64,000 nucleotides of DNA, taken from positions 35,449,703 to 35,513,702 of the forward strand of contig CP154954.1 of NCBI GenBank assembly GCA_039621445.1. The letters run 5' to 3'. The notes under the pieces are model-generated. The model ran no database searches. It was not told where the DNA came from and saw only the letters and a program-made list of their open reading frames with translations. A program made the translations under genes and the position numbers. How positions within the stretch are numbered: position 1 is the stretch's first letter; every line of letters begins with the position of its first letter. Origin of the DNA: Euglena gracilis. Lineage: Eukaryota. Below are positions 1-29,391 of this stretch, in pieces.

Positions 1-1715
1 TGGAAGAAATGAGCAGACTTAGATGGGTGCGTTCGACCATTCCGGGGGACATTTACCAGGTCAGCCCAGGTTACCATGTATAAATGGACCAAATTGGGCC
101 TTACTCCGAGTTACCGAATGGGTGTTCCAGGAGGCCTCCAAAGTCAGGGGACCCGTTGGTTTCATGATTGTCGTGGTTTAATGGTAAGAAAAACATGCAG
201 CCGGAAGGTTGGTTGCAAGAAATGAGCAGATTTAGATGGGTGCATTCGACCATTCCGGGGGACATTTACCAGGTCAGCCCAGGTTACCATGTAAAAATGG
301 ACCAAATTGGGCCTTACTCCGAGTAACCGAATGGGTGTTCCAGGAGGCCTCCAAAGTCAGGGGACCCGTTGGTTTCATGATTGTCGTGGTTTAATGGTAA
401 GAAAAACATGCAGCCGGAAGGTTGGTTGCAAGAAATGAGCAGATTTAGATGGGTGCATTCGACCATTCCGGGGGACATTTACCAGGTCAGCCCAGGTTAC
501 CATGTAAAAATGGACCAAATTGGGCCTTACTCCGAGTTACCGAATGGGTGTTCCAGGAGGCCTCCAAAGTCAGGGGACCCGTTGGTTTCATGATTGTCGT
601 GGTTTAATGGTAAGAAAAACATGCAGCGGAATGTTGGTTGCAAGAAATGAGCAGATTTAGATGGGTGCATTCGACCATTCCGGGGGACATTTACCAGGTC
701 AGCCCAGGTTACCATGTATAAATGGACCAAATTGGGCCTTACTCCGAGTCACCGAATGGGTGTTCCAGGAGGCCTCCAAAGTCAGGGGACCCGTTGGTTT
801 CATGATTGTCGTGGTTTAATGGTAAGAAAAACAAGGTATGTTGCAAGAAATGAGCAGATTTAGATGGGTGCGTTCGACCATTCCGGGGGACATTTACCAG
901 GTCAGCCCAGGTTACCATGTAAAAATGGACCAAATTGGGCCTTACTCCGAGTTACCGAATGGGTGTTCCAGGAGGCCTCCAAAGTCAGGGACCCGTTGGT
1001 TTCATGATTGTCGTGGTTTAATGGTAAGAAAAACATGCAGCGGGAATGTTGGTTGCAAGAAATGAGCAGATTTAGATGGGTGCATTCGACCATTCCGGGG
1101 GACATTTACCAGGTCAGCCCAGGTTACCATGTAAAAATGGACCAAATTGGGCCTTACTCCGAGTTACCGAATGGGTGTTCCAGGAGGCCTCCAAAGTCAG
1201 GGGACCCGTTGGTTTCATGATTGTCGTGGTTTAATGGTAAGAAAAACATGCAGCGGGAATGTTGGTTGCAAGAAATGAGCAGATTTAGATGGGTGCATTC
1301 GACCATTCCGGGGGACATTTACCAGGTCAGCCCAGGTTACCATGTAAAAATGGACCAAATTGGGCCTTACTCCGAGTTACCGAATGGGTGTTCCAGGAGG
1401 CCTCCAAAGTCAGGGGACCCGTTGGTTTCATGATTGTCGTGGTTTAATGGTAAGAAAAAGATGCAGCGCGAATGTTGGTTGCAAGAAATGAGCAGATTTA
1501 GATGGGTGCATTCGACCATTCCGGGGGACATTTACCAGGTCAGCCCAGGTTACCATGTAAAAATGGACCAAATTGGGCCTTACTCCGAGTAACGAAAGGG
1601 TGTTCCAGGAGGCCTCCAAAGTCAGGGGACCCGTTGGTTTCACGATTGTCGTGGTTTAATGGTAAGAAAAACATGCAGCGGGAATGTTGGTTGCAAGAAA
1701 TGAGCAGATTTAGAT
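1..1715 (+). repeat. 213-bp tandem satellite array, block A (~8 monomers)
   Basis: The motif ...gacatttaccaggtcagcccaggttaccatgtaaaaatggacc... recurs about every 213 bp (ORF-track hits at 1008 and 1221). The array ends at ...agatttagat, where unique sequence begins. Confidence 0.98.
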
Positions 1716-4700
1716 CAGTCGTCAAGCTTGAGGTTTGAGTACTTGAAGGCGTCCTTGAACTTTCTGTTCAAGGTGGAGTATTCCTCCAGTGGCTTCTCGG
1801 CACTCGGCACGATTGTGCGAACTGCGCCTTCCGCAGTGTGCCAGAAGGTACCTCGCAGGCAGTTGACGCAGAGTACTGGTACATTCGTACCATCTCGCTC
1901 CGTGTAGCCAAAATTGTGCTTGTGGGTCCAACTGTCCACGCACTTGGCACATACCAAGGCGGCACAGTTGGGTATGTACATATCCTTGTGGAACGATTTC
2001 CGATCCACAGGGTTGCACACATGAACGAGGGGTAATCCCAAGTCAGGAGCACTGTTGTACATCCTGTGTCAAACAGTGCAGAGCCACACAAATCGGTTTT
2101 CTGATGTTCTGTCGACGAGGAATTCCTCGCCGAAGTATTGGGCCAAAACACGTGGTGATCTGGAATTGTAATAATTCAAGGTGACATTCTGGTCAAAGGA
2201 CCATTTCCGTCCTTGACAGAACAGTGGTTCAATCCACCGATTGAGGCATTGGTCTGTTCGCAGCTTGTGTTCGATCATCATGTACCTGTTTTTCAGGTCA
2301 TGAGTCTCAGGATCATCCTGAGTCATCGCATTCCAGTCGATTACAACTTCGCCTTCCGAAGGTGTCGTAGTCGTAGAGGCGCGGGATTTTCCCTGCCCCT
2401 TCGTAGGTGGTTTCGGCTGTGAGGTTTTCCCATAGCCGGATGATGTGACCTGTGTGAATCCTCCTCCCGAGGCTAATCCTCTAGAAGAAGATGCACCCTG
2501 GCCTCCAGCACCACCACCGCCTTTCGGTGGGGGCTGATCACCTGTCTTAGGTGAGGGTTTGCAAGGCGCGGCACCGGGCTTTGATTTGGCCGGGGCCTTC
2601 GGACTTCCGCTTTCCGGAGCATCCGAGGGTCGCCGTTCGGCGTCACGCTTGCTTGACCAGGTGCGTGGTGACGGCTGGGCCGGGGGTCTTTTCCCCGACA
2701 CCGAGCGTCGTTGACCTTCAGCAGGGGTTTCCCGAGCTGAGGGTCGCCCTACGCGTTCCTTCGCTGCGCTCGTGGGTTTCCCAGGAGCAGCAGTGGGGGA
2801 CGGTGTGGGTGTGGACGTCGCCGCTGCACTTCGCGTTGGCTGAGTCTGTGGTGGGGGCATGGATGTCCGTGTAGCCTGTTTTTCAGGTGCCGGTGTCCGT
2901 GTGCCCGCACGCTTCGGTGCAGTGGCCGCTGTGTGTGGGGGTACGGGCTCATCCCGTGCCTCTGATGCCGCTACCGGTGCTAATGCAGGTTCATCCTGCA
3001 CTGGCGCGGGTAGTGCTATCTCCACTGACATTGCCGTCTGTTCGCCCTCCGTCCGTGTCGTTTCCGACACCGGCGGTGGCGTGGCCATTGGGGGAGGTTC
3101 ATCCTCCTCCATGGCTGCAACTTCAGTTGTTTCGTCCGTTGGCTGGACAGTTTCCGCCACAGCAGTGGAAGAACTGGCCGCAGTGCCACGTGGGGTGACA
3201 ACTGCGATCAGTGATCGCAAACCGCCGAGTACACGTCCGCCCAGTGAGGGGCGCCGTTCAGGTCCTTCCCCTGAAGTGGGCTCCTCCACTGGCTCCTCTG
3301 TCGTCGGGATTTCCCCGGGGACAGGAAGCTTGAGGCGTAATACCTCAGGCGTATGGGTTACCGTCTCCGGCGGGTTTTCCCGCGGAGGGGTCGGTCCTCC
3401 TGGCGTACCCGGTGAGGATGGTGACAGTGGGACAGGCGTCATTTCACCTGTCGGTGATCCCGGGCGCTGGGCGGTTTCCGCCACAGTGTCCAGCATCACA
3501 ACCGATGGGCTACGGGTTTCCCGTGCCGGAGGTTCCGCGGGCTGAGGTTCATCCTCGGCCATTGGGACCACTTCTTCCGTCTCCTCCGCTTCCGGAGGTG
3601 AGTCCTCTGTGTGTAGCTGTGCTGCAGAACGCGGGTCTTCCCCGGTTCTGTAGCACCCCTGTGCGTCTGACAGGCGGAAAAAGCTAATACTTTCGCTCCT
3701 GTCAGAGTTGGGATATGGGGGTGGCCATGACGGTCTTACCCAGCTTCCGGGTAAGGGCTCTGGCTCGTCCTCATTGTTACGGCAGAGGTCTTCCCACTGC
3801 ATTCGCCGATCCCAGCTCATGCCACGTTCTCCTGTGTCTTCCAGGAAGGCTGGCAGCGGCAAGGCATAACGTGGCTGTTTTTCCACGTCTGCTGCGTAGA
3901 AGGACTGGAAATCTTCCCAGATCAGGATATTCCCGAACTGGTTTTCCATGTGCTTCGGAAGACCGATTTCGGCCTCGTACCAGTCCGGCCGCAGGTTCAT
4001 CCTGCGTCGGTCTTGGTCATTCGGTCTGGCTTCTTCCTCGGTGTATCCCCGAGGTAACCACTTCCTGTGAATATTCACATCAGTGGTCATGTACTCCAGG
4101 AAATAAATGTACACCTCCAGGACGTAGGTAATCCACGCCCTGTGCCAGTATTGTTGAAGCAGAAATATTTTCTGCCGGTGCTGTTTCAGCACCTTTCGAT
4201 GTTGCGTTCCGATCTGGGGCTTTCGGCACTGATGCAGGAGAAATCTCCTGGTCAGTGGGCTGCCGGCATTCTCGGCAGTCGGAGGCGGTTTTCCACGCTC
4301 ACCGAAACCCCAGAAATCAACAATGTGTTGCTCTTTGCAAAACTGGCATTCCAGCTTGTATCGTTGTGAGGATAGGCGAGGTCCACGTCCAGTACCTTGA
4401 ACAGCATGCCATACATGCTATCCAAGAATACTTGGAGGTTGTTCGTGAACATTACCGCAGCCTGCACCTGGAGTTTCTCCGGCAGGGGGTAATACTTCCA
4501 CTGGATTCCCAGTGCGCTGACAGAATACATGTGGTTGAAGATTTCCTTCAACTGTGCGACGAACGTTTCATCGTCAGGACATGTTCCCAAACAGTTCACG
4601 TACGACTGACCGTTTCGGTCAGTAAAGATGCCGAAGTTCTGGCAGGGGTATCCCAACCAGAACCACAGCTCCCAGAAACCGGGCATCCGGTCCAGGACGA

Positions 4701-5944
4701 CTTCATTCGAATGAGGGTATCCCTCAAATGCATGAAGTTCAGAACTGTAGAAAAATCGCTTGCAGTGATCGTACATACGATCCTGTACCACTTCGAGCAC
4801 CGCTTCCGGTGGTCGGTGGATGACGTTACCTGCACGCGTGTACTGCTGAAGATTTTCTTTAATTTTCGGCCAGATCTCATCCAGGTAGTCGAACACCTGG
4901 TTAACGTCGTAATCCTTCGTTTTCGAAGGGTCGGCGGCTTTTCCGCCTTTTCCTGTCGGGGGTCCGGCAGATTTTCCGCCTTTGCCTGGAGCTGGTCCAG
5001 CGGGTTTTCCGCCTTTCCCAGATGGGGCTTTCCCACCTTTCTCCTGGCCTTTACCTTTACCCTTACCCTTGCCTTTTCCTTTTCCCTTGCCCTTCGTGTT
5101 GGACAGCCATTCTATCGTCGCCCGATATGGGTCCCAATATTCCCAGTATTCTGGGTCTTCTTCTGTATACACAGGATAAGTCACGGATTCCGTGCTTGGT
5201 GTTCGAGCAAATTCCTACTCAGCATCACCACGATTCGAGTAAACCGGTGCGACTGGGGATGGTCGGGTTTCCCGACGTGCCCGTTCTGCCGTCACGTCGG
5301 GCGCTGGCGGAGCTTCCTCCTCAGCGTCGACGTGCATCGCCGCCGGCGGGTTTTCCGACCTCGGCGAGCGGCGTTGTGGCTGCGGCGTCAAATTTTCCGG
5401 GCCGCGGTCACGTTTGCCGGCGGCAGAGCTTGTGGGTCGTGCTGGTGGCGCTTCCGCCACAGCCACGTCCCGCTGTCGCGCTGGTTGACTTAACCGTGAT
5501 GGATCTGGGACTCCTGTGAGAGCCGACACAGCAGCATCATACTGCTGGCGCTCTTCCCGTGTCATTTCCGCCCGGGCAGGGTATCCCTGGCCGGCGGAAA
5601 CAGGGGGACGACGTGCTATTTGTCGTTGGATTGTCACAGCATATTCATACTGTTGACGGTCCTCCTCAGTCTCGAACGGCCGACCAGTCCACGGGTTAAC
5701 GGGTTCATCCCGTGCCGGGGTAACTGGTGCCGCACGAGGCGCTGTCGCGGCTTCCCGCGGACGAGCGCTTCGGGCAGAGTCAGACGCCGGGGGAGGATTT
5801 CCCTCCGCAGGACGTCGTGGGATAGGGTCAGGTATGGTTGGGTGGGGTTGAGGTGGATATACGTACTGATCCCGTGGCATTGGCGCCTCCTGGGGGTAAT
5901 CCCCAGAGACGGTATACTGAGACACAGGCTCCTGCGCAGGATCC
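1715..5944 (-). pseudogene. Large extra ORF (ORF3, ~1400 codons) downstream of pol; unknown function, Pro/Ala/Thr/Gly-Lys-rich with CxxC motifs
   Basis: The ORF pieces 5215.., 4252..5184, 2069..4192 and 1715..2062 join through an in-frame TAG (5215), one frameshift (~4350-4375) and an in-frame TGA (2069). Confidence 0.7.
5040..5095 (-). repeat. (Lys-Gly)n low-complexity coding repeat in ORF3
   Basis: Translation reads KGKGKGKGKGKGKGKG, followed by GKGGK.A.P repeats. Confidence 0.85.
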
Positions 5945-8900
5945 TCGGGCCCATACCCTTTCCAGCGGACCTTCCAAAGGTGCATACCTTTGTCGATTTT
6001 GTGATCGATAATTTTATCGACTACAAAGTCGTCCGTCTCAGGTAATCTGGAACGGGGTTTGAAGTGCAAACACGGGATGGGTTTCCCATCCGGTGGCGAC
6101 AGGTATGGTTTGAAGTCGTCCATATGAACGTCCTCAACACCATTCGGTAATGCAACCTTGTAACGCCCGCTGGTACCTAGTCTTTCTAGGATTTCACAGG
6201 GGCCGAGCCAGAGGGGGTCCAGCTTGGAAGACTGCATGCGAGTACGGCTATTCCGTACCCACACGCGGTCGCCAGGACTATACACAGGTGCCTTGAAGTT
6301 CTGCAAAAACGATTTCCGTTTTGCTGCATGAATATCAGTCACGCGTTTCTGGACTGCAGAACGTAGATTTTCTACTTCCGCAAACCAGGTTTCGCAACTG
6401 ACACTCGTTCGGGCGGGTCTCTCCGAAGGGACATCCCCTATGGTCGGAGGGTCCCGTCCGAAAACTAATTTATAGGGGGAATGAGGTAAAACCAACCCTG
6501 GTAGGGTATTGATATAAAACAAAGACCATGGTAGAACTGATATCCAGTTGCTGCGCGAGTCAGCCAGTGAAAGGCGAAGCATATTCACGACGGATTTCAC
6601 GGCTGCCTCGGCTCTACCATTGCCTTTGGGTCGGTATATAATGGAAAAATGTTGCTCGATTCCGAGTAAACCGCACAAAGTGGTGAAAAACCTTGAAGAA
6701 ATCAAATGGTCTTGATCACTCACAATTTCGTTCGGTAAACCCATCAAGCAAATGCATTTCTCCAAAAATATAGTTGCCAAACTTTGGGCAGTCAACCCTG
6801 ACTTCTGGCATGGAATGGCTACAATGTACCCACTCAGCCTGCAGACGACAACAAAGACGTAATCGTAAGTTTTGTCGTCTGTTCCTTTGCACGGTTCTAA
6901 TTCCAGAAAATCCATGCAGAGGGATGTAAAAATGTCAGGGGGTACGGGGAAAAAGTCCATCGTACCAGGGGGGGTACCTCTGCGGGGTTTTACCGCTTGA
7001 CAAATTTGACACCGTTGCGTTATTCGCAAACAGCGTGAGTAAAACTCTTTCTCGCTCAGGGTTGTGCAATACCTGCGGCCCACCAACGAAAGAAGTTTGG
7101 GGGCCCCAGGGTGACCATGGTTGTGATAACACAAAATCACATCATCAACCAGGTCCTGGGGAATACAATATTTGTAACCCGATTCATTGTGAAAAACCAA
7201 CCGTAAAGGTGAAAGAGTGTAATTGTCCAGTACTTCGCCATTACGAAGTCTGGTGACAATGGTGTCATACACCGGATCACGACTATAATCCCATTCGCGA
7301 AAGAACAGTGGGGAAGGGGACTCCGTGCGCATAATACGCCGGGGCCCGGGCGTGCTTCCACGTCGGCGCCTTCCTCGCACTGGTGCGACCAGGAATAGTT
7401 GTGAAACGGGAAAGAATCCAAAAGATTATCCGCAGCGTCGTTTCGACGTGCGTAGTCGTCAGCTTCCTGACTTCCATGAAAAGTCGCGTCTCCCTCATCC
7501 GGGTTCCCAGGGTAATACCAAGGGGCCCGACTGAGCGGATCCGCTACTTTTTGTGTGTGACCAGGGGTATAGATAACCACAAGGTTGAATTGACTCAAGA
7601 ACTCATGCCATCTGCATCGCCTTCCGACCGATGACATGGCCTTGTTCAAATCCTCGGTGTACCAGTGTTGGAGACTCTCATGGTCGGTCTTGACGAGGAT
7701 CTGGACGAGACTGCTGGCTACCCAGCTTCGGAATTTCTGGAGTATAAGCACGATTGCGTAGGTTTCCTTCTCGCGTATACTCCATTTGACTTGACCTTTT
7801 CCATCGTCGCCCTGTAACTTTCTGCTGAAGAAAGCCACAGGTCGGAGCTCATTCGCCGCATTATGCTGGCTAAGAACTCCGCCAACAGCGTAATCGCTGC
7901 TGTCGACTTCCAACACGTATGGTTTGTACGGGTCCGCGATTTCGAGGACAACATTCTCCAAAAGCAAAACCTTGATTTTCTCAAGGGCGTCGCGCATTTG
8001 GTCATCCCAAATGACTTTGGTATTGTCAACAGCCCGGTTTTTTGAGCTGTTTGGTGAGGGGCACCGCGATTTTCGCGAAGTCCTTCATATAAATCGCGTA
8101 GTATTGGGCTAATCCCAAAAATCCTTTGAGGTGAGTAATCGTTTTGATTACCTCAGGGGTCCATTTCTTAATGGCTTCGAGTTTACTCGGAGCGGCTTTC
8201 CGCTGTCCATTGCTGAGGATGTGCCCACAAAATTTTATAAGTATCCGAAACAAATGCATTTTCGCGCCTTTCGCGAAAAGCACATGTTTTTGAAAAGCGG
8301 TTAATACCGCGCAAACATGGTGGAAATGTGTGACGAGGATATCCTCGCTCGATTTTGCGGATGGTGGTGGTGTTCCCACCAGCACATCATCAATGTACAC
8401 AATGGCAAACGGTAAATCGCGTAGAACCCATTGTATCATGCGCTGAAACATGGCTGGGCCATTCTTAACACCCATGGGGAGTACCGTCCATTGGTACACA
8501 CCCTTGGATGTCACGAATGCCGTGTATGGTTGGGAGTCAGGGTGTAAGTGCATTTGGTGAAAACCATCCTCCAGATCGAAAATTGACCACAACCGGTTTT
8601 CCGATTGTTTGGTGATCAAATCCTCGATCAGGGGGAGCGGGAAGGGATCATCCCTTGTTTGGGAGTTCAGATACCGGTAATCCAGCACCAGCCTCCATTT
8701 CTTCTGACCTGAGGGGTCTGGGGGTTTAGGAACAACAAATGCCTGGGATGTCCACTCGCTTTTCGAGGGTACAATCCACTCGCTGAATAAGCTTCTCAAT
8801 CATTTCATTGAGAGCTTGTTCGCGTTCTCCCGAACAACGAAAAAATTTTCGGTGCATTGGTTTGGCTCCATCCTTAAGCTCGATCTTGCAAACACCGAAC

Positions 8901-10936
8901 GGACCGCGTATCGCGGGGTCGATGTCGCACGCGTATACTGGATTTTCCAGCACACCGTGGAATTCGCGGGTAATCCGCGAACAGAATTCGGCTGATTTAG
9001 GATGCTGACCTGCACTCTCGATGACTGCGGAAACCGCCATTGTATCCCTGGGGCTACCGAGCTTCCTCGGCACCGCGAATTCGGACATTCCGAATGCATC
9101 GAAGAAACATACGCGAAAAATGATTTCTTGCAAGGGTGGTAATATTTTACCACAAAAATCCTCAAAAATCGGTACATTAGTGGGTAAATCCCACCAATAA
9201 AAACATACATACGATAGTTGGGTGAACCATTCCGCTTCCGGAATGATGGGCATGAGAAAAACTCCACGGGCTTCATCCCGCAGAATTTTCTCAACCGCAC
9301 ATTCGATAAGTTTTGGGGGGGGTGCATCCATAACACCGTATCACCCCAAAATTTATCAAATGTGTTGGAGTGTTGTGACCAATGACGTGGCAAACGGGCA
9401 TGTGCATTGGATGAGAAGGCATCGATTTCCAATGCCAAATCAAAAGAATCTGCCAATGTCGCAATTTTTGAAAACCATCGTTCCAAAATGCGATATTGAC
9501 CGAAATTGAAAGCATTCCATACACGTTTCGCGTATTCATGCACCCGATTTTCGGGTTGAAGGGTAGAAAAACAATGAATGGATCCACAAACATGCGGGCT
9601 GTCTTCCACTACCACAATGGTTAATCCCAAGGGAGTTTGGACAGGTTGGGGGTTTCCCCATTCCGCATCAAATCCGTACCAAGTGTGATCGCGATTGTAA
9701 TTAGGAATCGCGCTTTTCGCGTTTCCGAACAACGAGGCTAATCCGCGTTGTTGGAGTACTCGGTGTATCTCCGCGCATTGAGGGCTACAACCAAGTGTAT
9801 CATGGGGGGTGGATTCCGTTTTCGGAATTGCGATTAGTGTCGGATTTTGAACTAAACATCCACAATCGAAATCCGATTGGCTGGAAATTCTCCTGCAGTG
9901 CACACATTGGAAGGAAGTGTGATGGTGTGACGGGTGTGCGTGAAAGTGGGTGTCGATGACATTAGCCGGGGAGTCTTGTACAGGTGTGCCTGGATTCGGC
10001 ACAACTGGTGGGAAACGGAGTGGTGGTGTAGCTGGGCGACTACTCGACACCGTAATTACTTCAGGCCTTTGGGCTTTCGTCTTGTAACCCAGTGAAACGG
10101 CGGGGGTACCGCTACTCGCTTGACATGCCTCATGTGGAACGCATGTTGGTGTGTCATTGGGCAGGGGGGAGGCTTTCTCCGTACCCCGGGTGTGGAAAAC
10201 GGTTGTTGGTGTGGTGGGTAACGGTGTTGCCATTGTGGGTAACGGTGTGGGCAAAGCGGTGGTCATCATAGTGGATGACAACGGTGATGGTGGTTTGGGT
10301 GTCAATGAAGTGGTGGGTGCTGTGCGCAAACCGTGGGAGTGGCAATCCACAACCAATCGGTACTGGCGTAAAAATGGGTATCCCAAAATTACGTCAGACC
10401 CGTGAATTCCGGACTCGTAACCCCAAATATTGGTGAAATGTTGTAAGTGTGGGGGTTGTGAGTGATGCTTCGGAATGATGGGCAAGAGTATCTCGAGCAC
10501 ACATCCCAAATCACCACCACACATGGGGGTGTTATCCGCGGTTGTAATTTTGATCGGTTTCTTGGCGCTTACCAAGAGCGGGGTCGGTATCAACCCCAAC
10601 CGAAAGAGCAGTGCAATGCGACAACCAGTGTCAATGAGAATTTTAACTTTAGTGGAGAAATTTTGGATGCGGATTTCCGCTTGGACGAGTAATTCCATTG
10701 GTGGTACGCAAAGTGAAGGGTCTGGCGGAAATACGTTTGCATGCCAGCTCTCCCATGAACCCTTTCCTACTTTGCTCAGCATTCCGAGCGGAAATGTGGA
10801 GTGGGGGGTAGGGGACCCGAAATAATTCCGGGTACTGACCGTGAAGGCGGATGGGCAGGGGGGGGTAAGGTTGATCAGGTCTTACCTCCATCTGTTCATC
10901 AGCCCAGAGGTCCGTGCCCTCGGACCTCGGGCTCCC
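5945..10936 (-). pseudogene. pol: pol of copy 1: protease, MTase-like domain, RT, RNase H, integrase, partial chromodomain; frameshifted
   Basis: Protease LIDTGC...ILGYPFL. RT WRLVLDYRYLN, DLEDGFHQ, LPMGVKNGP, VYIDDVLV. RNase H VDSSDYAVGGVLSQ, EKETYAIV, TDHESL. Integrase HNHGH..CQIC, MDF/SDQD/GRAE, WLGPC. Chromodomain FVVDKIIDH...WKVRWKGY. Frameshifts near 10860, 9312, 8781, 8040 and 7412. Confidence 0.95.
9095..9510 (-). other. Dam/DIRS-type N6-adenine (amino) DNA methyltransferase-like domain within pol, copy 1
   Basis: Reconstructed across a 1-bp frameshift: QYRILERWF...LEIDAFSSNAHARLPRHWS...NTFDKFWGDTVLWMHPPQKLIECAVEKILRDEARGVFLMPIIPEAEWFTQL. This matches the IDLFAS..A.LPRY.S..DAF..W...xPPx..I..V..KI....A...I.P.....WF..L pattern of DIRS/phage Dam-like MTases. 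Confidence 0.8.
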
Positions 10937-10939
10937 CTA
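10901..10939 (-). promoter_or_regulatory. Candidate gag/pol UAG readthrough signal (UAG-GGG plus 13-bp stem-loop), copy 1
   Basis: Minus strand reads TAG GGG AGCCC-GAGGTCCG AGGGCA CGGACCTC-T-GGGCT. The stop and stem are conserved in copy 2. Confidence 0.6.
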
Positions 10940-13440
10940 CTCCAAGTCCGAACCGGCCGCATAGCCGGCAACGGACTTTTTGGTGGAATAGATGGAATTC
11001 AATGAGCGCACCGCCATTCGGGCCTCATTAAATTCCCCGTCCGAGGTCTCATCCCCCTCCCTGCCCGAAGCCGGGGTGTCCTCCTCCAAACAAGATATCT
11101 TGAAACCGACCTTTTGCCGGTTGGAGGAGTAACCACGGTCATCGTAGCCGGGCCGGGGGGAACGAGATCTGGGACATTTGGATGCGTGGTGATCTTTGGA
11201 ACCGCAAAGTGAACAACGGGATTTGTGGCGGGATTCCGCATAACGAGGGGAACGGTATTCCGTTCGACCGTCAAACCGTCGTGGTGAACGGATTTCCCGT
11301 CGACCATGACCGGTGTATCGGGACTTCCCCGTTGACTCGCGTGAAGAGGATGATCCACTTCGCGAACGAGATCGTGAAGAATCGCGATTGAAATCCCGTT
11401 TTCGGGCAGGAGGGCCAGGTGACCGACCGCGAGAAGGACGGGTTTCCCGACCATCTCGCGATGGTGACTTGGGCCTACTACCGCTAAAGTGGTTCTCCGA
11501 AGAACGTGAAACTCCCGATTGACGTGAAAACGCCGAGGAACCCGATCCCCGTGAGGAGGTCGAGCCCCTTGGGCTTCCAATACGCTTTCGCGCATCGGGA
11601 TTCGGGCATTCCCGAGACATGTGACCAGATTTGTTGCACAAAAAGCACAGTTTATCCGTGCCTTGGTCCGAGGTACGCTGATTCCGCGTTTTCGGTCCCG
11701 TGGTGGGTGATCTTGGTGACATGAGTGATTTTTGCAACGCATTAACCGCACCCGCAGGGATTCCCGCGGTGGGATGCGTTTGGAAAGCGGACTGTATTTG
11801 TCCCAAAACTTGTGTAAGCTTGAGTTGCTTTGACACATAATTCCAACGTTGGGCAAGAGTCATCTCATGCCCTGCCAACTCCTCGCGATGGATATCCTTC
11901 ACGAGGGATGGTGTGAAATGCAACAAAACCGCATCGAATTGTTCGCGCATTTGCTTCTCGCTAAGTTCATCAACTTCGGAAGCAAGTGCTAACCATTTGG
12001 CATACCAAAGGTCAATGGATTTCCATTTGCGATCCGATGGCGCGCTTTGTCGCCACTTCTTCTCCAGGGTAATCCTGGTGACCAAACTTGAATTGGTTGA
12101 AGCGTATTGCTCAACCAGGTCATCGAATGATACGCCATTACGTATCACCAAATTGCGTGCGCGTTCTCGCTCCTCCCTCGGTAGGCAATCGATGAATTCC
12201 ATCTTGACTACCTCGGGATTCGGGTCTTGGGTGGGTCCCTTTAGTGCTCAATAGTACTCCCAGTCCCCAAAAAATTGTCTCCATGTGGTTGGATCCCCGT
12301 CCCATTGGGGCTTCACCTTGTTCGCGATTGCGATGGTGCCCTTGAAGTCTCTCTGAGTAACCCGCTGACCCTCGGTGGTATTCCAGGGGTTTGGGTCAGG
12401 GTAATTCTTAACACCAAACGCGTTTCGCGGATTTTCCGCTCCATGTGTAACCCGTGCAGGATTTCCCGCACCAAGTGTAAGGTTAGCAGGATTTTCCTGC
12501 GGGATTTGCGAAAAATTTGGTGAAATTCTCCCGGTGGGGCGGGTTTCCCGCCGAAAACCCGATGGGTAATTCGGTAATCCAGACCCCGTTGGTGATTGGT
12601 ATGATCGCGAATGCGACACATGACCAATACCAGGTGTGGGGTGTTGGCTCATACCTCGTACAAGGTTGGAATGTTTAATTTCTTGGTGGAGACTCGAATT
12701 TTCCAGTGGGGGGTCAATTTCCTCATCGGAAATGTGTTGTGAAAAATGAGTTTGTGGTGTTGGCAAATGCAAAGGTGGTACAATTCGCGTTTTCGCGGGT
12801 GGTTGTACCAAATTCGCGGTGGATGTAGGGATTCCTACTCCGGAAATGGTAATTTGAGAACGCGATTCCGGGACATTTGGAATACCAACCGCAGCGCTTA
12901 CCGCGGTAGGTGGTGGCACAACCGGTACCGGAGGGGACATTTTATCCAGACTCGCGGACAAGTCATGCACCGTTTCTTCCAAATGTTCCACCAACTGGAG
13001 TTGGCCGCAAATACGGTCAACCTCATTCTCCAAATGCCTAATGCGTTTGCTGTAACGGGAAAAATCTTCCAAGTGTGGCAACTTTTCAGAAACCAAGTGT
13101 AATTCTTGGGCAAGATTTCCTTGGGACTCCTCCACATTCCGGAGTTGACCCGCAAGCGCTTTCACCGCATTTGAGACGGTTTGCAATTGGTGGAGTGACT
13201 TGGTGGGGGTTTCCACGGTGGTGCGCGAATTTTCCGCGGTTGGCTTTTCCAACAACGCAGAAAATCGTCCATCCAACCGAGAAACCTCATCTTGCATGGA
13301 TCGGGCATTCCGATTCACGCTTTCCTCAATTTGGAGCAAACTTGTACAAAATGCTTGCAAGGTTTCCTTGATGTCACCAGGCACTTTGTCATAAAATGAG
13401 CGAAATTCCGGTGACTCAGATATCCGAGCACGCGAAATGG
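10937..13440 (-). pseudogene. gag: gag of copy 1 (5'-truncated; in-frame TGA at 12248-12250)
   Basis: ORFs 12248..13576 and 10937..12202 are in the same frame. The TGA aligns with TGG (Trp) in copy 2. Zinc knuckles CFLCNKSGHMSREC and CSLCGSKDHHASKC. The N-terminal ~45 codons of the 13576 ORF are satellite-derived. Confidence 0.9.
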
Positions 13441-16400
13441 GTCGTGGTTTAATGTTAAGAAAAACATGCAGCCGGAAGGTTGGTTGCAAGAAATGAGCAG
13501 ATTTAGATGGGTGCATTCTACCATTCCGAGGGACATTTACCAGGTCAGCCCAGGTTACCATGTAAAAATGGACCAAACTGGGCCTTACTCCGAGTAACCG
13601 AATGGGTGTTCCAGGAGGCCTCCAAAGTCAGGGGAGCCGTTGGTTTCATGATTGTCGTGGTTTAATGGTAAGCAAAACATGCAGCGGGAAGGTTGGTTGC
13701 AAGAAATGAGCACATTTAGATGGGTTGCTTCGACCATTCCGGGGGACATTTACCAGGTCAGCCCAGGTTACCATGTAAAAATGGACGAAATTGGGCCTTA
13801 CTCCGAGTAACCGAATGGGTGTTCCAGGAGGCCTCCAAAGTCAGGGGACCCGTTGGTTTCATGATTGTCGTGGTTTAATGTTAAGAAAAACATGCAGCCG
13901 GAAGGTTGGTTGCAAGAAATGAGCACATTTAGATGGGTGCATTCGACCATTCCGGGGGACATTTACCAGGTCAGCCCAGGTTACCATGTAAAAATGGACC
14001 AAATTGGGCCTTACTCCGAGTTACCGAATGGGTGTTCCAGGAGGCCTCCAAAGTCAGGGGACCCGTTGGTTTCATGCTTGTTGTGGTTTAATGGTAAGAA
14101 AAACATGCAGCCGGAAGGTTGGTTGTAAGTAATGAGCAGATTTAGATGGGTGCATTCGACCATTCCGGGGGACATTTACCAGGTCAGCCCAGGTTACCAT
14201 GTAAAAATGGACCAAATTGGGCCTTACTCCGAGTAACCGAATGGGTGTTCCAGGACGCCTCCAACGTCAGGGGACCCGTTGGTTTCATGATTGGCGTGGT
14301 TTAATGGTAAGCAAAACATGCAGCCGGAAGGTTGGTTGCAAGAAATGAGCAGATTTAAATGGGTGCATTCGACCATTCCGGGGGACATTTACCAGGTCAG
14401 CCCAGGTTACCATGTAAAAATGGACCAAGTTGGGCCTTACTCCGAGTAACCGAATGGGTGTTCCAGGACGCCTCCAAAGTCAGGGGACCCGTTGGTTTCA
14501 TGATTGTCGTCGTTTAATGGTAAGAAATACATGCAGCCGGAAGGTTGGTTGCAAGAAATGAGCACATTTAGATGGGTGCATTCGACCATTCCGGGGGACA
14601 TTTACCAGGTCAGCCCAGGTTACCATGTAAAAATGGACCAAATTGGGCCTTACTCAGAGTAACCGAATGGGTGTTCCAGGAGGCCTCCAAAGTCAGGGGA
14701 CCCGTTGGTTTCACGATTGCCGTGGTTTAATGGTAAGAAAAACATGCAGCCGGAAGGTTGGTTGCAAGAAATGAGCAGATTTAGATGGGTGCATTCGACC
14801 TTTCCGGGGGACATTTACCAGGTCAGCCCAGGTTACCATGTAAAAATGGACCAAATTGGGCCTTACTCCGAGTAACCGAATGGGTGTTCCAGGAGGCCTC
14901 CAAAGTCAGGGGACCCGTTGGTTTCATGATTGTCGTGGTTTAATGTTAAGAAAAACATGCAGCCGGAAGGTTGGTTGCAAGAAATGAGCACATTTAGATG
15001 GGTTCATTCGACCATTCCGGGGGACACTTACCAGGTCAGCCCAGGTTACCATGTAAAAATGGACCAAATTGGGCCTTACTCCGAGTAACCGAATGGGTGT
15101 TCCAGGAGGCCTCCAAAGTCAGGGGACCCGTTGGTTTCACGATTGCCGTGGTTTAATGGTAAGAAAAACATGCAGCCGGAAGGTTGGTTGCAAGAAATGA
15201 GCAGATTTAGATGGGTGCATTCGACCATTCCGGGGGACATTTACCAGGTCAGCCCAGGTTACCATGTAAAAATGGACCAAATTGGGCCTTACTCCGAGTA
15301 ACCGAATGGGTGTTCCAGGACGCCTCCAAAGACAGGGGACCCGTTGGTTTCATGATTGTCGTGGTTTAATGGTAAGAAAAACATGCATCCGGAAGGTTGG
15401 TTTCAAGAAATGAGCACATTTAGATGGGTGCATTCGACCATTCTGGGGGACATTTACCAGGTCAGCCCAGGTTACCATGTAAAAATGGACCAAATTGGGC
15501 CTTACTCCGAGTAACCGAATGGGTGTTCCAGGAGGCCTCCGAAGTCAGGGGACCCGTTGGTTTCATGATTGTCGTGGTTTAATGGTAAGAAAAGCATGCA
15601 GCCGGAAGGTTGGTTGCAAGAAATGAGCAGATTTAGACGGGTTAATTCGACCATTCCGGGGGACATTTACCCGGTCAGCCCAGGTTACCATGTAAAAGTG
15701 GACCAAATTGGGCCTTACTCCGAGTAACCGAATGGGTGTTCCAGGAGGCCTCCAAAGTCAGGGGACCCGTTGGTTTCATGATTGTCGTGGTTTAATGGTA
15801 AGAAAAACATGCAGCCGGAAGGTTGGTTGCAAGAAATGAGCACATTTAGATGGGTGCATTCGACCATTCTGGGGGACATTTACCAGGTCAGCCCAGGTTA
15901 CCATGTAAAAATGGACCAAATTTGGCCTTACTCCGAGTAACCGAATAGGTTTTCCAGGAGGCCTCCAAAGTCAGGGGACCCGTTGGTTTCATGATTGTTG
16001 TGGTTTAATGGTAAGAAAAACATGCAGCGGGAATGTTGGTTGCAAGAAATGAGCAGAATTAGATGGGTGCATTCGACCATTCCGGGGGACATTTACCAGG
16101 TCAGCCCAGGTTACCATGTAAAAATGGACCAAATTGGGCCTTACTCCGAGTAACCGAATGGGTGTTCCAGGAGGCATCCAAAGTCAGGGGACCCGTTGGT
16201 TTCATGATTGTCGTGGTTTAATGGTAAGAAAAACATGCAGCCGGAAGGTTGGTCGCAAGGAATGAGCACATTTAGATGGGTGCATTCGACCATTCCGGGG
16301 GACATTTACCAGGTCAGCCCAGGTTACCATGCAAAAATGGACCAAATTGGGACTTACTCCGAGTAAGCGAATGGGTGTTCCAGGAGGCCTCCAAAGTCAG

Positions 16401-19400
16401 GGCACCCGTTGGTTTCATGATTGTCGTGGTTTAATGGTAAGAAAAACATGCAGCCAGAAGGTTGGTTGCAAGAAATGAGCAGGTTTAGATGGGTGCATTC
16501 GACCATTCCGGGGGACATTTACCAGGTCAGCCCAGGTTACCATGCAAAAATGGATCAAAATGAGCCTTACTCCGAGTTACCGAATGGGTGTTCCAGGAGG
16601 CCTCCAAAGTCAGGGGACCCGTTGGTTTCATGATTGTCGTGGTTTATTGATAAGAAAAACATGCAGCCGGAAGGTTGGTTGCAAGAAATGAGCAGATTTA
16701 GATGGGTGCATTCGGCCGTTCCGGGGGACATTTACCAGGTCAGCCCAGGTTACCATGTAAAAATGGACCAAATTGGGCCTTACTCCGAGTAACCGAATGG
16801 GTGTTCCAGGAGGCCTCCAAAGTCAGGGGACCCGTTGGTTTCATGATTGTCGTGGTTTAATGGTAAGAAAAATATGCGGCCAGAAGGTTGGTTGCAAGAC
16901 CTGAGCACATTTAGATGGGTGCATTCGACCATTCCGGGGGACATTTACCAGGTCAGCCCAGGTTACCATGTAAAAATGGACCAAATTGGGCCTTACTCCA
17001 AGAAGTAACCGAATGGGTGTTCCAGGAGGCCTCCAAAGTCAGGGGACCCATTGGTTTCATGATTGTCGTGGTTTAATGGTAAGAAAAACATGCAGCCGGA
17101 AGGTTGGTTGCAAGAAATGAGCACATTTAGATGGGTGCATTCGACCATTCTGGGGGACATTTACCAGGTCAGCCCAGGTTACCATGTAAAAATGGACCAA
17201 ATTGGGCCTTACTCCGAGTAACCGAATGGGTGTTCCAGGAGGCCTCCGAAGTCAGGGGACCCGTTGGTTTCATGATTGTCGTGGTTTAATGGTAAGAAAA
17301 GCATGCAGCCGGAAGGTTGGTTGCAAGAAATGAGCAGATTTAGACGGGTTAATTCGACCATTCCGGGGGACATTTACCCGGTCAGCCCAGGTTACCATGT
17401 AAAAGTGGACCAAATTGGGCCTTACTCCGAGTAACCGAATGGGTGTTCCAGGAGGCCTCCAAAGTCAGGGGACCCGTTGGTTTCATGATTGTCGTGGTTT
17501 AATGGTAAGAAAAACATGCAGCCGGAAGGTTGGTTGCAAGAAATGAGCACATTTAGATGGGTGCATTCGACCATTCTGGGGGACATTTACCAGGTCAGCC
17601 CAGGTTACCATGTAAAAATGGACCAAATTGGGCCTTACTCCGAGTAACCGAATAGGTTTTCCAGGAGGCCTCCAAAGTCAGGGGACCCGTTGGTTTCATG
17701 ATTGTTGTGGTTTAATGGTAAGAAAAACATGCAGCGGGAATGTTGGTTGCAAGAAATGAGCAGAATTAGATGGGTGCATTCGACCATTCCGGGGGACATT
17801 TACCAGGTCAGCCCAGGTTACCATGTAAAAATGGACCAAATTGGGCCTTACTCCGAGTAACCGAATGGGTGTTCCAGGAGGCATCCAAAGTCAGGGGACC
17901 CGTTGGTTTCATGATTGTCGTGGTTTAATGGTAAGAAAAACATGCAGCCGGAAGGTTGGTCGCAAGGAATGAGCACATTTAGATGGGTGCATTCGACCAT
18001 TCCGGGGGACATTTACCAGGTCAGCCCAGGTTACCATGCAAAAATGGACCAAATTGGGACTTACTCCGAGTAAGCGAATGGGTGTTCCAGGAGGCCTCCA
18101 AAGTCAGGGCACCCGTTGGTTTCATGATTGTCGTGGTTTAATGGTAAGAAAAACATGCAGCCGGAAGGTTGGTTGCAAGAAATGAGCAGATTTAGATGGG
18201 TGCATTCGGCCGTTCCGGGGGACATTTACCAGGTCAGCCCAGGTTACCATGTAAAAATGGACCAAATTGGGCCTTACTCCGAGTAACCGAATGGGTGTTC
18301 CAGGAGGCCTCCAAAGTCAGGGGACCCGTTGGTTTCATGATTGTCGTGGTTTAATGGTAAGAAAAACATGCAGCCAGAAGGTTGGTTGCAAGAAATGAGC
18401 AGGTTTAGATGGGTGCATTCGACCATTCCGGGGGACATTTACCAGGTCAGCCCAGGTTACCATGCAAAAATGGATCAAAATGGGCCTTACTCCGAGTTAC
18501 CGAATGGGTGTTCCAGGAGGCCTCCAAAGTCAGGGGACCCGTTGGTTTCATGATTGTCGTGGTTTATTGATAAGAAAAACATGCAGCCGGAAGGTTGGTT
18601 GCAAGAAATGAGCAGATTTAGATGGGTGCATTCGGCCGTTCCGGGGGACATTTACCAGGTCAGCCCAGGTTACCATGTAAAAATGGACCAAATTGGGCCT
18701 TACTCCGAGTAACCGAATGGGTGTTCCAGGAGGCCTCCAAAGTCAGGGGACCCGTTGGTTTCATGATTGTCGTGGTTTAATGGTAAGAAAAATATGCAGC
18801 CAGAAGGTTGGTTGCAAGACCTGAGCACATTTAGATGGGTGCATTCGACCATTCCGGGGGACATTTACCAGGTCAGCCCAGGTTACCATGTAAAAATGGA
18901 CCAAATTGGGCCTTACTCCAAGAAGTAACCGAATGGGTGTTCCAGGATGCCTCCAAAGTCAGGGGACCCATTGGTTTCATGATTGTCGTGGTTTAATGGT
19001 AAGAAAAACATGCAGCCGGAAGGTTGGTTCCGGCTGCATGGTTGCAAGAAATGAGCATATTTAGATGGGTGCATTCGACCATTCCGGGGGACATTTACCA
19101 GGTCAGCCCAGGTTACCATGTAAAAATGGACCAAATTGGGCCTTACTCCGAGTAACCGAATGGGTGTTCCAGGAGGCCTCCAAAGTCAGGAGACCCGTTG
19201 GGTTCATGATTGTCGTGGTTTAATGGTAAGAAAAACATGCAGCCGGAAGATTGTTTGCAAGAAATGAGCAGATTTAGGTGGGTGCATTCGGCCGTTCCGG
19301 GGGACATTTACCAGGTCAGCCCAGGTTACCATGTAAAAATGGACCAAATTGGGCCTTACTCCGAGTAACCGAATGGGTGTTCCAGGAGGCCTCCAAAGTC

Positions 19401-22400
19401 AGGGGACCCGTTGGTTTCATGATTGCCGTGGTTTAATGGTAAGAAAAACATGCAGCCGGAATGTTGGTTGCAAGAAATGAGCAGATTTAGATGGGTGCAT
19501 TCGACCATTCCGGGGGACATTTACCAGGTCAGCCCAGGTTACCATGCAAAAATGGACCAAAATGGGTCTTACTCCGAGTTACCGAATGGGTGTTCCAGGA
19601 GGCCTCCAAAGTCAGGGGACCCGTTGGTTTCATGATTGTCGTGGTTTAATGGTAAGAAAATAATGCAGCCAGAAGGTTGGTTGCAAGAAAGGAGCAGATT
19701 TAGATGGGTGCATTCGACCATTCCGGGGGACGTTTACCAGGTCAACCCAGGTTACCATGTAAAAATGGACCAAATTGGGCCTTACTCCGAGTAACCGAAT
19801 GGGTGTTCCAGGAGGCCTCCAAAGTCAGGGGACCCGTTGGTTTCATGATTGTCGTGGTTTAATGGTAAGAAAAACATGCAGCCGGAAGGTTGGTTGCAAG
19901 AACTGAGCACATTTAGATGGGTGCATTCGACCGTTCCGGGGGACATTTACCAGGTCAGCCCAGGTTACCAGGTATAAATGGACCAAATTGGGCCTTACTC
20001 CGAGTAACCGAATGGGTGTTCCAGGAGGCCTCCAAAGTCAGGGGACCCGTTGGTTTCATGATTGTCGTGGTTTAATGGTAAGAAAAACATGAAGCGGGAA
20101 TGTTGGTTGCAAGAACTGAGCAAATTTAGATGGGTGCATTCGACCGTTCCGGGGGACATTTACCAGGTCAGCCCAGGTTACCAGGTATAATCAGACCAAA
20201 TTGGGTCTTACTCCGAGTAACCGAATGGGTGTTCCAGGAGGCCTCCAAAGTCAGTGGACCCGTTGGTTTCATGATTGTCGTGGTTTAATGGTAAGAAAAA
20301 CATGCAGCGGGATTGTTGGTTGCAAGAAATGAGCAGATTTAGATGGGTGCATTCGACCATTCCGGGGGACATTTACCAGGTCAGCCCAGGTTACCGTGCA
20401 AAAATGGACCAAATTGGGCCTTACTCCGAGTAACCGAATGGGTGTTCCAGGAGGCCTCCAAAGTCAAGGGACCCGTTGGTTTCATGATTGTCGTGGTTTA
20501 ATGGTAGAAAAAACATTCAGCGGGACTGTTGGTTGCAAGAAATGAGCAGATTTAGATGGGTGCATTCGACCATTCCGGGGGACATTTACCAGGTCAGCCC
20601 AGGTTACCATGTAAAAATGGACCAAATTGGGCCTTACTCCGAGTTACCGAATGGGTGTTCCAGGAGGCCTCCAAAGTCAGGGGACCCGTTGGTTTCATGA
20701 TTGTCGTGGTTTAATGGTAAAAAAAAGATGCAGCGCGAATGTTGGTTGCAAGAAATGAGCAGATTTAGATGGGTGCATTCGACCATTCCGGGGGACATTT
20801 ACCAGGTCAGCCCAGGTTACCATGTAAAAATGGACCAAATTGGGCCTTACTCAGAGTCACCGAATGGGTGCTCCAGGAGGCCTCCAAAGTCCAGGGGACC
20901 CGTTGGTTTCATGATTGTCGTGGTTTAATGGTAAGAAAAACATGCACCGGGAATGTTGGTTGCAAGAAATGAGCAGATTTAGATGGGTGCGTTCGACCAT
21001 TCCGGGGGACATTTACCAGGTCAGCCCAGGTTACCATGTAAAAATGGACCAAATTGGGCCTTACTCCGAGTAACCGAACGGGTGTTCCAGGAGGCCTCCA
21101 AAGTCCAGGGGACCCGTTGGTTTCATGATTGTCGTGGTTTAATTGTAAGAAAAACATGCACCGGGAATGTTGGTTGCAAGAAATGAGCAGATTTAGATGG
21201 GTGCATTCGACCATTCCGGGGGACACTTACCAGGTCAGCCCAGGTTACCATGCAAAAATGGACCAAAATGGGTCTTACTCCGAGGAACCGAATGGGTGTT
21301 CCAGGAGGCCTCCAAAGTCAGGGGACCCGTTGGTTTCATGATTGTCGTGGTTTAATGGTAAGAAAATAATGCAGCCAGAAGGTTGGTTGCAAGAAAGGAG
21401 CAGATTTAGATGGGTGCATTCGACCATTCCGGGGGACGTTTACCAGGTCAACCCAGGTTACCATGTAAAAATGGACCAAATTGGGCCTTACTCCGAGTAA
21501 CCGAATGGGTGTTCCAGGAGGCCTCCAAAGTCAGGGGACCCGTTGGTTTCATGATTGTCGTGTTTTAATGGTAAGAAAAACATGCAGCCGGAAGGTTGGT
21601 TGCAAGAACTGAGCACATTTAGATGGGTGCATTCGACCGTTCCGGGGGACATTTACCAGGTCAGCCCAGGTTACCAGGTATAAATGGACCAAATTGGGCC
21701 TTACTCCGAGTAACCGAATGGGTGTTCCAGGAGGCCTCCAAAGTCAGGGGACCCGTTGGTTTCATGATTGTCGTGGTTTAATGGTAAGAAAAACATGAAG
21801 CGGGAATGTTGGTTGCAAGAACTGAGCAAATTTAGATGGGTGCATTCGACCGTTCCGGGGGACATTTACCAGGTCAGCCCAGGTTACCAGGTATAAATGG
21901 ACCAAATTGGGTCTTACTCCGAGTAACCGAATGGGTGTTCCAGGAGGCCTCCAAAGTCAGTGGACCCGTTGGTTTCATGATTGTCGTGGTTTAATGGTAA
22001 GAAAAACATGCAGCGGGATTGTTGGTTGCAAGAAATGAGCAGATTTAGATGGGTGCATTCGACCATTCCGGGGGACATTTACCAGGTCAGCCCAGGTTAC
22101 CGTGCAAAAATGGACCAAATTGGGCCTTACTCCGAGTAACCGAATGGGTGTTCCAGGAGGCCTCCAAAGTCAGGGGACCCGTTGGTTTCATGATTGTCGT
22201 GGTTTAATGGTAGAAAAAACATTCAGCGGGACTGTTGGTTGCAAGAAATGAGCAGATTTAGATGGGTGCATTCGACCATTCCGGGGGACATTTACCAGGT
22301 CAGCCCAGGTTACCATGTAAAAATGGACCAAATTGGGCCTTACTCCGAGTTACCGAATGGGTGTTCCAGGAGGCCTCCAAAGTCAGGGGACCCGTTGGTT

Positions 22401-28400: not shown

Positions 28401-28973
28401 GCCGGAAGGTTGGTTGCAAGAAATGAGCAGATTTAGATGGGTGCATTCGACCATTCCGGGGGACATTTACCAGGTCAGCCCAGGTTACCATGTAAAAATG
28501 GACCAAATTGGGCCTTACTCCGAGTAACCGAATGGGTGTTCCAGGAGGCCTCCAAAGTCAGGGGACCCGTTGGTTTCATGATTGTCGTGGTTTAATGGTA
28601 AGAAAAACATGCAGCGGGAATGTTGGTTGCAAGAAATGAGCAGATTTAGATGGGTGCATTCGACCATTCCGGGGGACATTTACCAGGTCAGCCCAGGTTA
28701 CCATGTAAAAATGGACCAAATTGGGCCTTACTCCGAGTAACCGAATGGGTGTTCCAGGAGGCCTCCAAAGTCAGGGGACCCGTTGGTTTCATGATTGTCG
28801 TGGTTTAATGGTAAGAAAAACATGCAGCGGGAATGTTGGTTGCAAGAAATGAGCAGATTTAGATGGGTGCATTCGACCATTCCGGGGGACATTTACCAGG
28901 TCAGCCCAGGTTACCATGTAAAAATGGACCAAATTGGGCCTTACTCCGAGTAACCGAATGGGTGTTCCAGGAG
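13441..28973 (+). repeat. 213-bp satellite array, block B (~73 monomers) with 8-mer higher-order repeats
   Basis: Continuous monomers. Diagnostic variants recur at 1706-1707 bp spacing. Confidence 0.98.
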
Positions 28974-29391
28974 TAAGGCCCAATTGGGTCCATTTTTACA
29001 TTGTAACCTGGGCTGACCTGGTAAACGTCCCCCGGAATGGTCGAATGCACACATCTAAACGTGCTCATCTCTTGCAACCAACACTCCTGCTGCACGTCTT
29101 TTTTACCATTAAACCACGACAATGACGAAACCAACGGGTCCCCAGACTTTGGAGGCCTCCTGGAACACCCATTCGGTTACTCGGAGTAAGGCCCGATTTG
29201 GTCCATTTTTGCATGGTAGCCTGGGCTGAATCTGGTAAACATCCCCCGGAATGGTCGAATGCACCCATCTACATGTGCTCATTTCTGGCAACCAACGTTC
29301 CCGCTGCATGTTTTTCTTAACAAAAAACCACGACAATCATGAAACCAATGGGTTCCCAGACTTTGGAGGCCTACTGGAACACCCATTCGGT
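28974..29391 (-). repeat. Inverted, diverged satellite monomers (~2)
   Basis: Reverse complement of the monomer (taaggcccaattgggtccatttttacattgtaacctgggctgacctggtaaa...), with many substitutions. Confidence 0.95.

Follow-up and report, generated by a model that had tools for sequence, protein, structure and literature searches.

A broken reading frame behind a truncated chromodomain retroelement in Euglena gracilis satellite DNA is probably a fragment of an independent, highly repeated coding sequence

Introduction

Additional or env-like open reading frames (ORFs) are found downstream of pol in Athila/Tat-type plant elements and in insect errantiviruses, and foreign coding sequence has entered retroelements by capture or in mosaics, as exemplified by maize Bs1 and by retroviral oncogene capture. 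Centromeric chromoviruses, for their part, sit in satellite arrays, and so does the retroelement considered here, which lies in a stretch of 64,000 nucleotides of Euglena gracilis DNA (NCBI GenBank assembly GCA_039621445.1, contig CP154954.1, positions 35,449,703 to 35,513,702 of the forward strand; hereafter the window, in which all positions are counted). Behind the pol gene of this element, on the same minus strand, four apparent ORFs occupy a segment here called E2 (1717–5941). A previous reading of the letters and their ORFs, made with no database searches (the sequence-only reading), had taken this segment for one hidden protein of about 1,400 residues, in the position of env.

Repeats make up 58.84% of the E. 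gracilis genome, according to a published genome study (PMC11252322). A preprint (10.64898/2026.05.21.726589) describes chromodomain retroelements of this species with added methyltransferase domains, as well as chimeric and nested retroelements. In the present work, the segment was compared with the rest of the window, with protein collections and with contigs of public sequencing runs. Our conclusion is that it probably represents a dead internal fragment of an independent, abundant repeat, non-homologously joined to a truncated retrotransposon.

Materials and methods

Logan contigs of four public runs, designated by codes, were aligned to positions 1600–8000 of the window, and the outside evidence consists of these short contigs. 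X1 is a DNA run labelled organism A, X16 a run labelled organism B, X18 a leaf-litter metatranscriptome and X19 a fourth run. The contigs placed on the interval numbered 57,869 for X1 (about 200 letters long), 46 for X16, 185 for X18 and 56 for X19. X19 covered 20 of the 30 bins, at a depth of 0–21, and its gaps were not used. Loose ends of contigs are those of the best 24 of 866 rows, and differences those of the best 40 of 657; loose-end letters were compared and translated by eye. Database proteins are designated by P numbers (P0003, P0004, P0006, P0007, P0008, P0010, P0011, P0013, P0016 and others), the fragments among them coming from Logan assemblies.

Results

The window contains two coding inserts, both on the minus strand, A at 1716–13440 and B at 28974–39340, and their retroelement parts (A 5942–13442, B 29921–37403) are 91.7% identical over 7,544 columns in blastn. 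The segment belongs to insert A, where it meets pol at 5941/5942, inside the chromodomain. This chromodomain is truncated in copy A (5941–6027, minus strand), with a match to positions 1–30 of the 53 of Pfam Chromo (E 4.6e-5, 23.7 bits, under the cut-off of 25.1), whereas copy B matches positions 1–37 of 53 above the cut-off (E 5.3e-9, 36.3 bits) and then reaches a stop. The two copies are identical through '...WKG.G.E' and diverge after a common 'gagga' at 5942, where the similarity of A to B ends. Past this point, copy B adds 34 codons of a typical chromodomain end and the pol stop (29818–29921, minus strand, stop at 29818–29820), a part that copy A lacks, while copy A enters the low-complexity start of the segment. 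Elsewhere in the window, copy B included, blastn gave no match to 1716–5941, and tblastn of the segment against the rest of the window gave 16 hits at E <= 10, the best at only 0.067.

The ending found in copy B also occurs outside the window. P0018, a database relative with 72% identity, ends like copy B; among 45 candidate short proteins, it was the only one to lie across the junction, and the A-type join was present in none. In X16, record 15 follows the pol of copy A down to 5942 with 8 differences in 678 letters (98.8%) and then runs on for 264 further letters; in X18, record 21 does so with 11 differences in 337 letters (96.7%) and 569 further letters. By eye, the first 30 run-on letters of both records are copy B's chromodomain continuation, and at least 25 X1 contigs likewise leave copy A at 5942 into a chromodomain of the copy B type. 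From the opposite side, X16 record 14 covers 5495–5942 with 10 differences in 448 letters (97.8%) and continues with 142 letters unlike pol. Since pol contigs continue into the chromodomain and a segment contig continues into sequence other than pol, both parents of the junction occur separately, nearly unchanged, in other material. An accessory gene in the env position, as first supposed, is mostly unsupported: copy B, P0018 and the X16 and X18 contigs all have pol without the segment, and wherever linkage to pol could be tested in other copies, the two were unlinked, the outcome that the sequence-only reading had itself named as a refutation.

Opposite the pol junction, the segment borders the satellite at 1716/1717. 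The satellite supplies the third base (1715) of the TGA that ends the last ORF (1715–1717, minus strand); this stop owes its existence to the junction, and the ORF is truncated here. Two X18 contigs match from 1717 upward and go on with other letters, through which the frame stays open (by eye). Because the last stop borrows a satellite base and these contigs continue past 1717, the segment is cut at its satellite end too; the frame is truncated at both ends, and the segment is an internal fragment. The sequence-only reading had missed that the frame is continuous with pol only via the chromodomain junction at 5941/5942, that its last stop is built by the satellite and that both its ends are truncated.

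Between these two cuts, the four small ORFs are decayed pieces of one ancestral coding frame, as that reading had recognised. On the minus strand, from 5941 to 1718, this frame comprises about 1,408 codons from the interior of a longer coding sequence that is highly repeated, and is broken by a TAG, a frameshift and a TGA, the TAG being absent from nearly all other copies and the frameshift from some. The TAG (5215–5217, minus strand) lies in frame, as announced, between '...GDAE' and 'EFARTPSTESVTYPVY'. It is private to this copy or nearly so, nearly all other copies reading CAG at 5217 (plus-strand A to G): the G accounts for 627,428 of 627,499 of the X1 depth (71 contigs) and for the entire depth in X16 (13.2 of 13.2) and X18 (17.3 of 17.3). 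The ORFs at 4252–5214 and 2069–4417 overlap over 4252–4417 (166 nucleotides), in frames two bases apart, and a single frameshift does join them. P0008, which comes from another assembly, aligns to 4416–4363 in one frame and to 4366–4202 in the other; as the switch falls at 4363–4366, the shift was placed at 4363–4368 (minus strand), in a 'caca' run where the window has two letters more than the X16 and X18 contigs and one X1 contig. Two letters fewer were indeed found at 4364–4371 in every covering X16 and X18 contig; in X1, the shorter form was limited to 1 contig (5,903 of 29,399 depth), and most of the depth had the window's frameshifted form. The TGA (2069–2071, minus strand) directly follows 'WLCTV' and stands, as noted before, at a cysteine of a CxxC pair, namely the second Cys of a C-T-x-C-H motif, which is Cys in the aligned column of 5 of 5 homologues. 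At least the TAG and the frameshift are variable among copies. The coding reading exceeds chance, since an exhaustive HMMER search with 1718–4417 (the TGA read as X) against 1.84 billion proteins returned 14 proteins at E <= 1e-3, led by P0002 (E 1.2e-40), all of them of 431 residues or fewer. The frame of the window itself cannot make a protein, because it has no end of its own, two stops and one frameshift.

As to copy number, the segment proved highly repeated. Contig depths in X1 summed to 53,000–774,000 over the segment, 726,000–1,735,000 over pol and 7.1 million in the satellite bin, the single contigs listed having depths of 93–173. Very many distinct variants of the segment exist in this run, many of them with private deletions. 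At least half of the segment's sampled words were present in 15 of the 24 runs listed, all 15 labelled organism A; the best-matching run may be the very sample behind the window's assembly. In X18, recorded as metatranscriptomic RNA, the satellite bin (1600–1813) had a depth of 310, versus 5–36 over the segment; this reflects either satellite transcription or DNA carry-over, and X18 is not usable as expression evidence.

The order of parts described from the sequence was found again in the reconstructed protein. In frame with pol across the junction, a low-complexity N-terminal part with two EE.RQQY..AV motifs (5218–5941, minus strand throughout) is followed by a basic, Lys/Gly-rich (KG) tract of GK repeats (4915–5094, with tandem repeats at 4928–5094), a region rich in aromatic residues that is probably globular, matches no family and contains the frameshift (3640–4914), a P/T/A/E/S-rich linker (2318–3639) and a conserved C-terminal Cys/His domain (1790–2242). 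Aromatic residues number 6–13 per 50 residues from about 4914 to 3640, versus 0–1 in the linker. No obvious env-like signal peptide or transmembrane helix had been noted; the second part of this holds, as the four pieces contain no membrane-span-like stretch (highest Kyte–Doolittle mean over 19 residues 1.16) in a crude test that involved no signal-peptide predictor. The globular and linker parts match only short fragments of close relatives from Logan assemblies, with 56–71% identity (P0003, P0004, P0006, P0007 and P0011 for the linker), and P0010, P0016 and P0013 are themselves frameshifted, aligning in two to three frames. A word-indexed search gave no protein relatives of 4255–5214. The globular part had no matches in JGI metagenome contigs or in IMG/VR, and the Atlas feature search returned for it only unnamed bacterial clusters, at a recognition of 1534, below the useful level. 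AlphaFold2 modelling of 4255–4899 from a single sequence gave a low-confidence model, with a predicted local distance difference test (pLDDT) score of 45.5. At 4635–4684, X16 and X18 contigs cease matching from both sides, with identical loose-end letters that, translated by eye, give the same residues in diverged form, so that the family is patchily divergent rather than rearranged there. No window piece reached the threshold of a Pfam family. Third-position GC (0.51–0.72 in the segment, 0.47–0.58 in the retroelement) showed no clear separation and was not used.

The C-terminal domain is about 130 residues long and holds 8 invariant Cys and 2 invariant His. In a six-sequence alignment (LNRW...AQYFG...CTxCH...HxC...C-x4-C-x2-C...C-x-N-C in the window), 16 columns were invariant (N, Q, D, C-T-x-(C)-H, H-x-C, C, A, C-x2-C, P, C-x-N-C), and at one further column the window has X (the TGA) where the other five have Cys. 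The window agrees with the family pattern LNxW...Q..F......D...C-T-x-C-H...H-x-C...C-x4-C-x2-C...P..C-x-N-C, and from these ligands the domain probably binds two zinc ions. Five free-standing relatives (P0002, P0005, P0009, P0014 and P0015) are 230–431 residues long and 25–47% identical. The only named one is P0002, E. gracilis EG_transcript_25142 (EukProt EP00667), the others being unnamed ENA/JGI proteins; in all five, the Pfam search gave no family and no retroelement domain. A profile search of a 5.8-billion set with the C-terminal domain returned P0002 and P0015 only, IMG/VR gave no match, no match in the PDB profile search was better than E 0.88, and the P0015 contig was not found among metagenome contigs. 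AlphaFold2 modelling from the six-row alignment again reached low confidence (pLDDT 43.6). Among known folds, zf-C3HC4_4 was a weak lead (E 0.033–0.098, best 14.8 bits versus a cut-off of 30), with 1 of 6 members matching at E <= 10, and P0014 reached Atlas feature scores of 0.83–0.86 with RING clusters, below the level of 0.9. Identity as a RING finger was not supported, the profile scores staying under their thresholds and the spacing deviating. A literature search, which was not aimed at the motif, found no publication on this Cys/His domain or on such an ORF in a euglenid retroelement.

Copy B has a small ORF that starts 163 nucleotides past the pol stop, and this ORF was compared with the N-terminus of E2. 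BLASTP gave E 0.25, and no nucleotide similarity was found. The Smith–Waterman score was 64, a value reached by only 8–20 of 3,000 shuffles; two windows of like composition from the E2 linker equalled it, and the similarity is therefore compositional. Given these comparisons and the chance-level score of the X16 loose-end letters (see below), the idea that this ORF is a diverged start of E2 is not supported.

The surroundings of the two inserts are made of a 213-bp satellite, which forms three arrays (4–1715, 13441–28973 and 39341–64000) with matches of 96–97%. The first array (8.1 units, plus strand) abuts the segment, its final unit ending at phase 197. The neighbour of the segment, copy A (5942–13440, minus strand), is identified by its domains as an ordinary chromodomain Ty3/gypsy-type retroelement within satellite DNA, cut at both ends. 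Pfam recognised a gag zinc knuckle, RVT_1 (E 1.2e-25), RT_RNaseH_2 (E 2.7e-24), rve (E 3.1e-9) and Integrase_H2C2 (E 5.3e-6) on one strand, in the order reverse transcriptase (RT), RNase H and integrase, the latter consisting of H2C2, rve and SH3 parts. No direct repeats resembling long terminal repeats (LTRs) were found by blastn (word size 11) within A (1716–13440) or between the 5' part of B and the rest of B. The 5' end of copy A is cut as well, copy B carrying 1.9 kb of extra gag-side sequence past A's satellite junction. The satellite phases flanking insert A, 197 at 1715 and 130 at 13441, are discontinuous, with unit positions 130–197 on both sides, an overlap unlike the short duplication of target DNA that an integrase would leave. 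As the segment is cut at both ends, the retroelement is cut at its 5' end and the satellite phases are discontinuous, insert A is a mosaic of truncated repeats rather than one intact element inserted.

Insert B (minus strand) consists of a retroelement at 29393–39258 with diverged, inverted satellite at either end (28970–29392 and 39259–39340), 81–92% identical to the array unit. The phase of the outer plus-strand array is continuous round this 10.4-kb block (93 on the left, 92 on the right), which looks as if it had been inserted from an array of opposite orientation with satellite attached. The extra gag-side sequence of copy B (37404–39258, minus strand) contains three ORFs of 128–198 residues, none with a Pfam family; two are parted by one in-frame stop, and one has heptad-like Q/L/E runs. 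The spacer behind pol in copy B includes a 16-bp (CAACC)-like short repeat (29683–29720), and a similar motif forms the loose end of X19 contigs at 6803. In the pol of copy A, about 400 residues upstream of RT (8803–10881, minus strand) have no assigned function and hold a weak match to Pfam Dam at about 9309–9456 (minus strand; E 0.024, 14.7 bits versus a cut-off of 28.1, profile positions 22–70 of 169). The signal recurred neither in copy B nor in the adjacent frame, and the PDB search gave no methyltransferase, so that a Dam domain is unconfirmed; the match is of interest in view of the chromodomain retroelements with Dam that the preprint reports from Euglena.

Discussion

We regard the segment as probably a dead piece from the interior of an independent repeat. 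E2 would then be a separate, highly repeated coding sequence, mobile or amplified, the intact form of which would encode a very large protein that begins with a low-complexity part and continues with the Lys/Gly tract, the aromatic-rich globular region, the long Pro/Thr/Ala/Glu linker and, finally, the C-terminal domain. Non-homologous joining of DNA at one shared base, in satellite-rich chromatin, would have fused a fragment of it to a retroelement cut inside its chromodomain, and the 213-bp satellite would have cut the other end of the fragment; the frame, open across the join, would be a one-in-three accident. Several observations weigh against this interpretation. The X1 summed depth is alike on both sides of 5942 (600,000 on the segment side, 726,000–840,000 on the pol side), and segment and pol co-occur in 4 of 4 runs, which fits one element carrying both equally well. 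Among the X1 loose ends listed (best 24 of 866), which belong to short contigs, no segment contigs leave at 5942. The native flanks of E2 are known only from the few contig letters mentioned above, and it may be a mobile element or a captured or amplified gene. In addition, the first 30 upstream letters of X16 record 14, read by eye in the E2 frame, are free of stops and contain an ATG 7 codons before the junction. The best alignment of these letters puts their ATG on that of the ORF behind pol in copy B, with a score at the level of chance, reached by 747 of 2,000 shuffles.

These observations bear on the rather unlikely case that a retroelement lineage, or a recombinant subfamily, really carries E2. 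E2 could be a native third ORF shortly downstream of pol, and the window copy would then have lost about 0.3 kb, comprising the last part of the chromodomain with its stop, the spacer and 7 codons from the start of E2; or a captured gene could have been fused in frame to pol via template switching and amplified as a subfamily. The fusion is indeed in frame, its breakpoints lie near the end of pol (34 codons before the stop of B) and near a possible ORF start (7 codons after the ATG in X16), copy B has its small ORF 163 nucleotides behind the pol stop, and segment and pol have similar depths in X1, X16 and X18. About 80% of the X1 depth at 4364 has the window's frameshifted form, which fits an amplified composite, and chimeric, domain-swapping chromodomain retroelements are reported from E. 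gracilis in the preprint (10.64898/2026.05.21.726589). However, the link between segment and pol was seen in the window alone, and in no other copy, contig or database protein seen; the ORF behind pol in copy B shows no specific resemblance to the N-terminus of E2, no LTRs surround either copy, and the relatives of the C-terminal domain have no retroelement domain. In its most far-reaching form, likewise rather unlikely, E2 would be a gene borne by retroelements, as a third ORF or a Pol extension, in a chromodomain lineage of a euglenid-like protist. Its product would be giant and mostly disordered and would combine a basic KG tract with a new Cys/His domain for two zinc ions, a domain also present in free-standing cellular proteins; in the window copy, a short deletion or a template switch would have fused E2 to the integrase. 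It appears quite improbable that E2 is a non-mobile cellular gene family, of which a pseudogene fragment would have been trapped in satellite-rich heterochromatin and multiplied by segmental or tandem duplication. The distant relatives do resemble normal short mRNAs, one being an E. gracilis transcript and others lying on contigs of 1.1–2.1 kb with 1 member per cluster, and the fragment is flanked by satellite and another truncated repeat; yet thousands of X1 contig variants, many with copy-specific deletions, cover the segment, other assemblies hold frameshifted fragments in the pattern of a dispersed, decaying repeat, and the globular and linker parts are found only in close relatives, as fragments. 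That the join at 5941/5942 is an assembly error is very improbable: although the region is rich in satellite and repeats and no independent contig among those listed bridges the join, chimeras form in shared repeats, whereas the two sides share one base, and the X1 depth is continuous over the junction.

Returning to an independent repeat, an intact E2 protein might, at low confidence, have a nuclear binding or adaptor role, a proposal made because of composition and ligand pattern only. The KG tract could tentatively be expected to contact nucleic acid and the zinc domain to act as an interaction module; the C-terminal domain would be a zinc-binding module for protein or nucleic acid. The sequence-only reading had suggested a possible binder of nucleic acid or chromatin, or an anti-silencing factor, and the observations that bear on this are the missing membrane span and a Cys/His pattern like that of zinc fingers. 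This copy gives no basis for annotating a new retroelement architecture of pol plus 1,400 residues, as it is a junction of truncated repeats in satellite. The segment does reveal an uncharacterised protein family whose Cys/His domain (CTxCH...HxC...CxxxxCxxC...CxNC) is strictly conserved and of which one branch exists at very high copy number. Should that branch travel with a chromodomain retroelement, it would be a new accessory module for a group of protist retroelements reported to collect chromatin-related domains; if E2 proves to be retroelement-borne, it would represent a new kind of LTR retroelement accessory module, perhaps acting on chromatin.

At the level of the protein, the C-terminal domain is common to the segment and to P0002, P0005, P0009, P0014 and P0015, and in P0009 a KG tract is likewise present, with a linker of low complexity behind it. 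Unlike the segment, these free-standing relatives have no aromatic-rich globular region, and none is known as repeated, each cluster having 1 member. RING and other paired-ligand zinc fingers likewise have four ligand pairs, which are CxxC, HxC, CxxC and CxxC in the segment. The segment differs by the 21 residues between its second and third pairs, for which the RING consensus has 2–3 residues.

At the level of the element, the neighbour of the segment shares with chromoviruses, and with the 'DAM-LTR/EpiLTR' elements of E. gracilis, the zinc knuckle, RVT_1, RT–RNase H and an integrase with H2C2, rve and SH3. Its C-terminal chromodomain is whole in copy B and incomplete in copy A, LTRs were found for neither window copy, and E2 has no counterpart in the canonical copy. 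Compared with the env-like extra ORFs of Athila/Tat elements and errantiviruses, the segment is likewise 3' of the integrase, on the same strand, large and devoid of a known enzymatic domain. It differs from them in having no separate start, no membrane span and no LTR beyond it, in being joined inside the chromodomain and in its absence from the other copy and from relatives. With respect to gene-capture or template-switch chimeras and nested-insertion mosaics, the window copy differs in that both element ends are missing, and any mobility or amplification of it would be hypothetical. With these chimeras and mosaics, the segment shares the abrupt, non-homologous junction at a single base, a pol frame that continues into foreign coding sequence and parents that both occur nearly unchanged in other runs.

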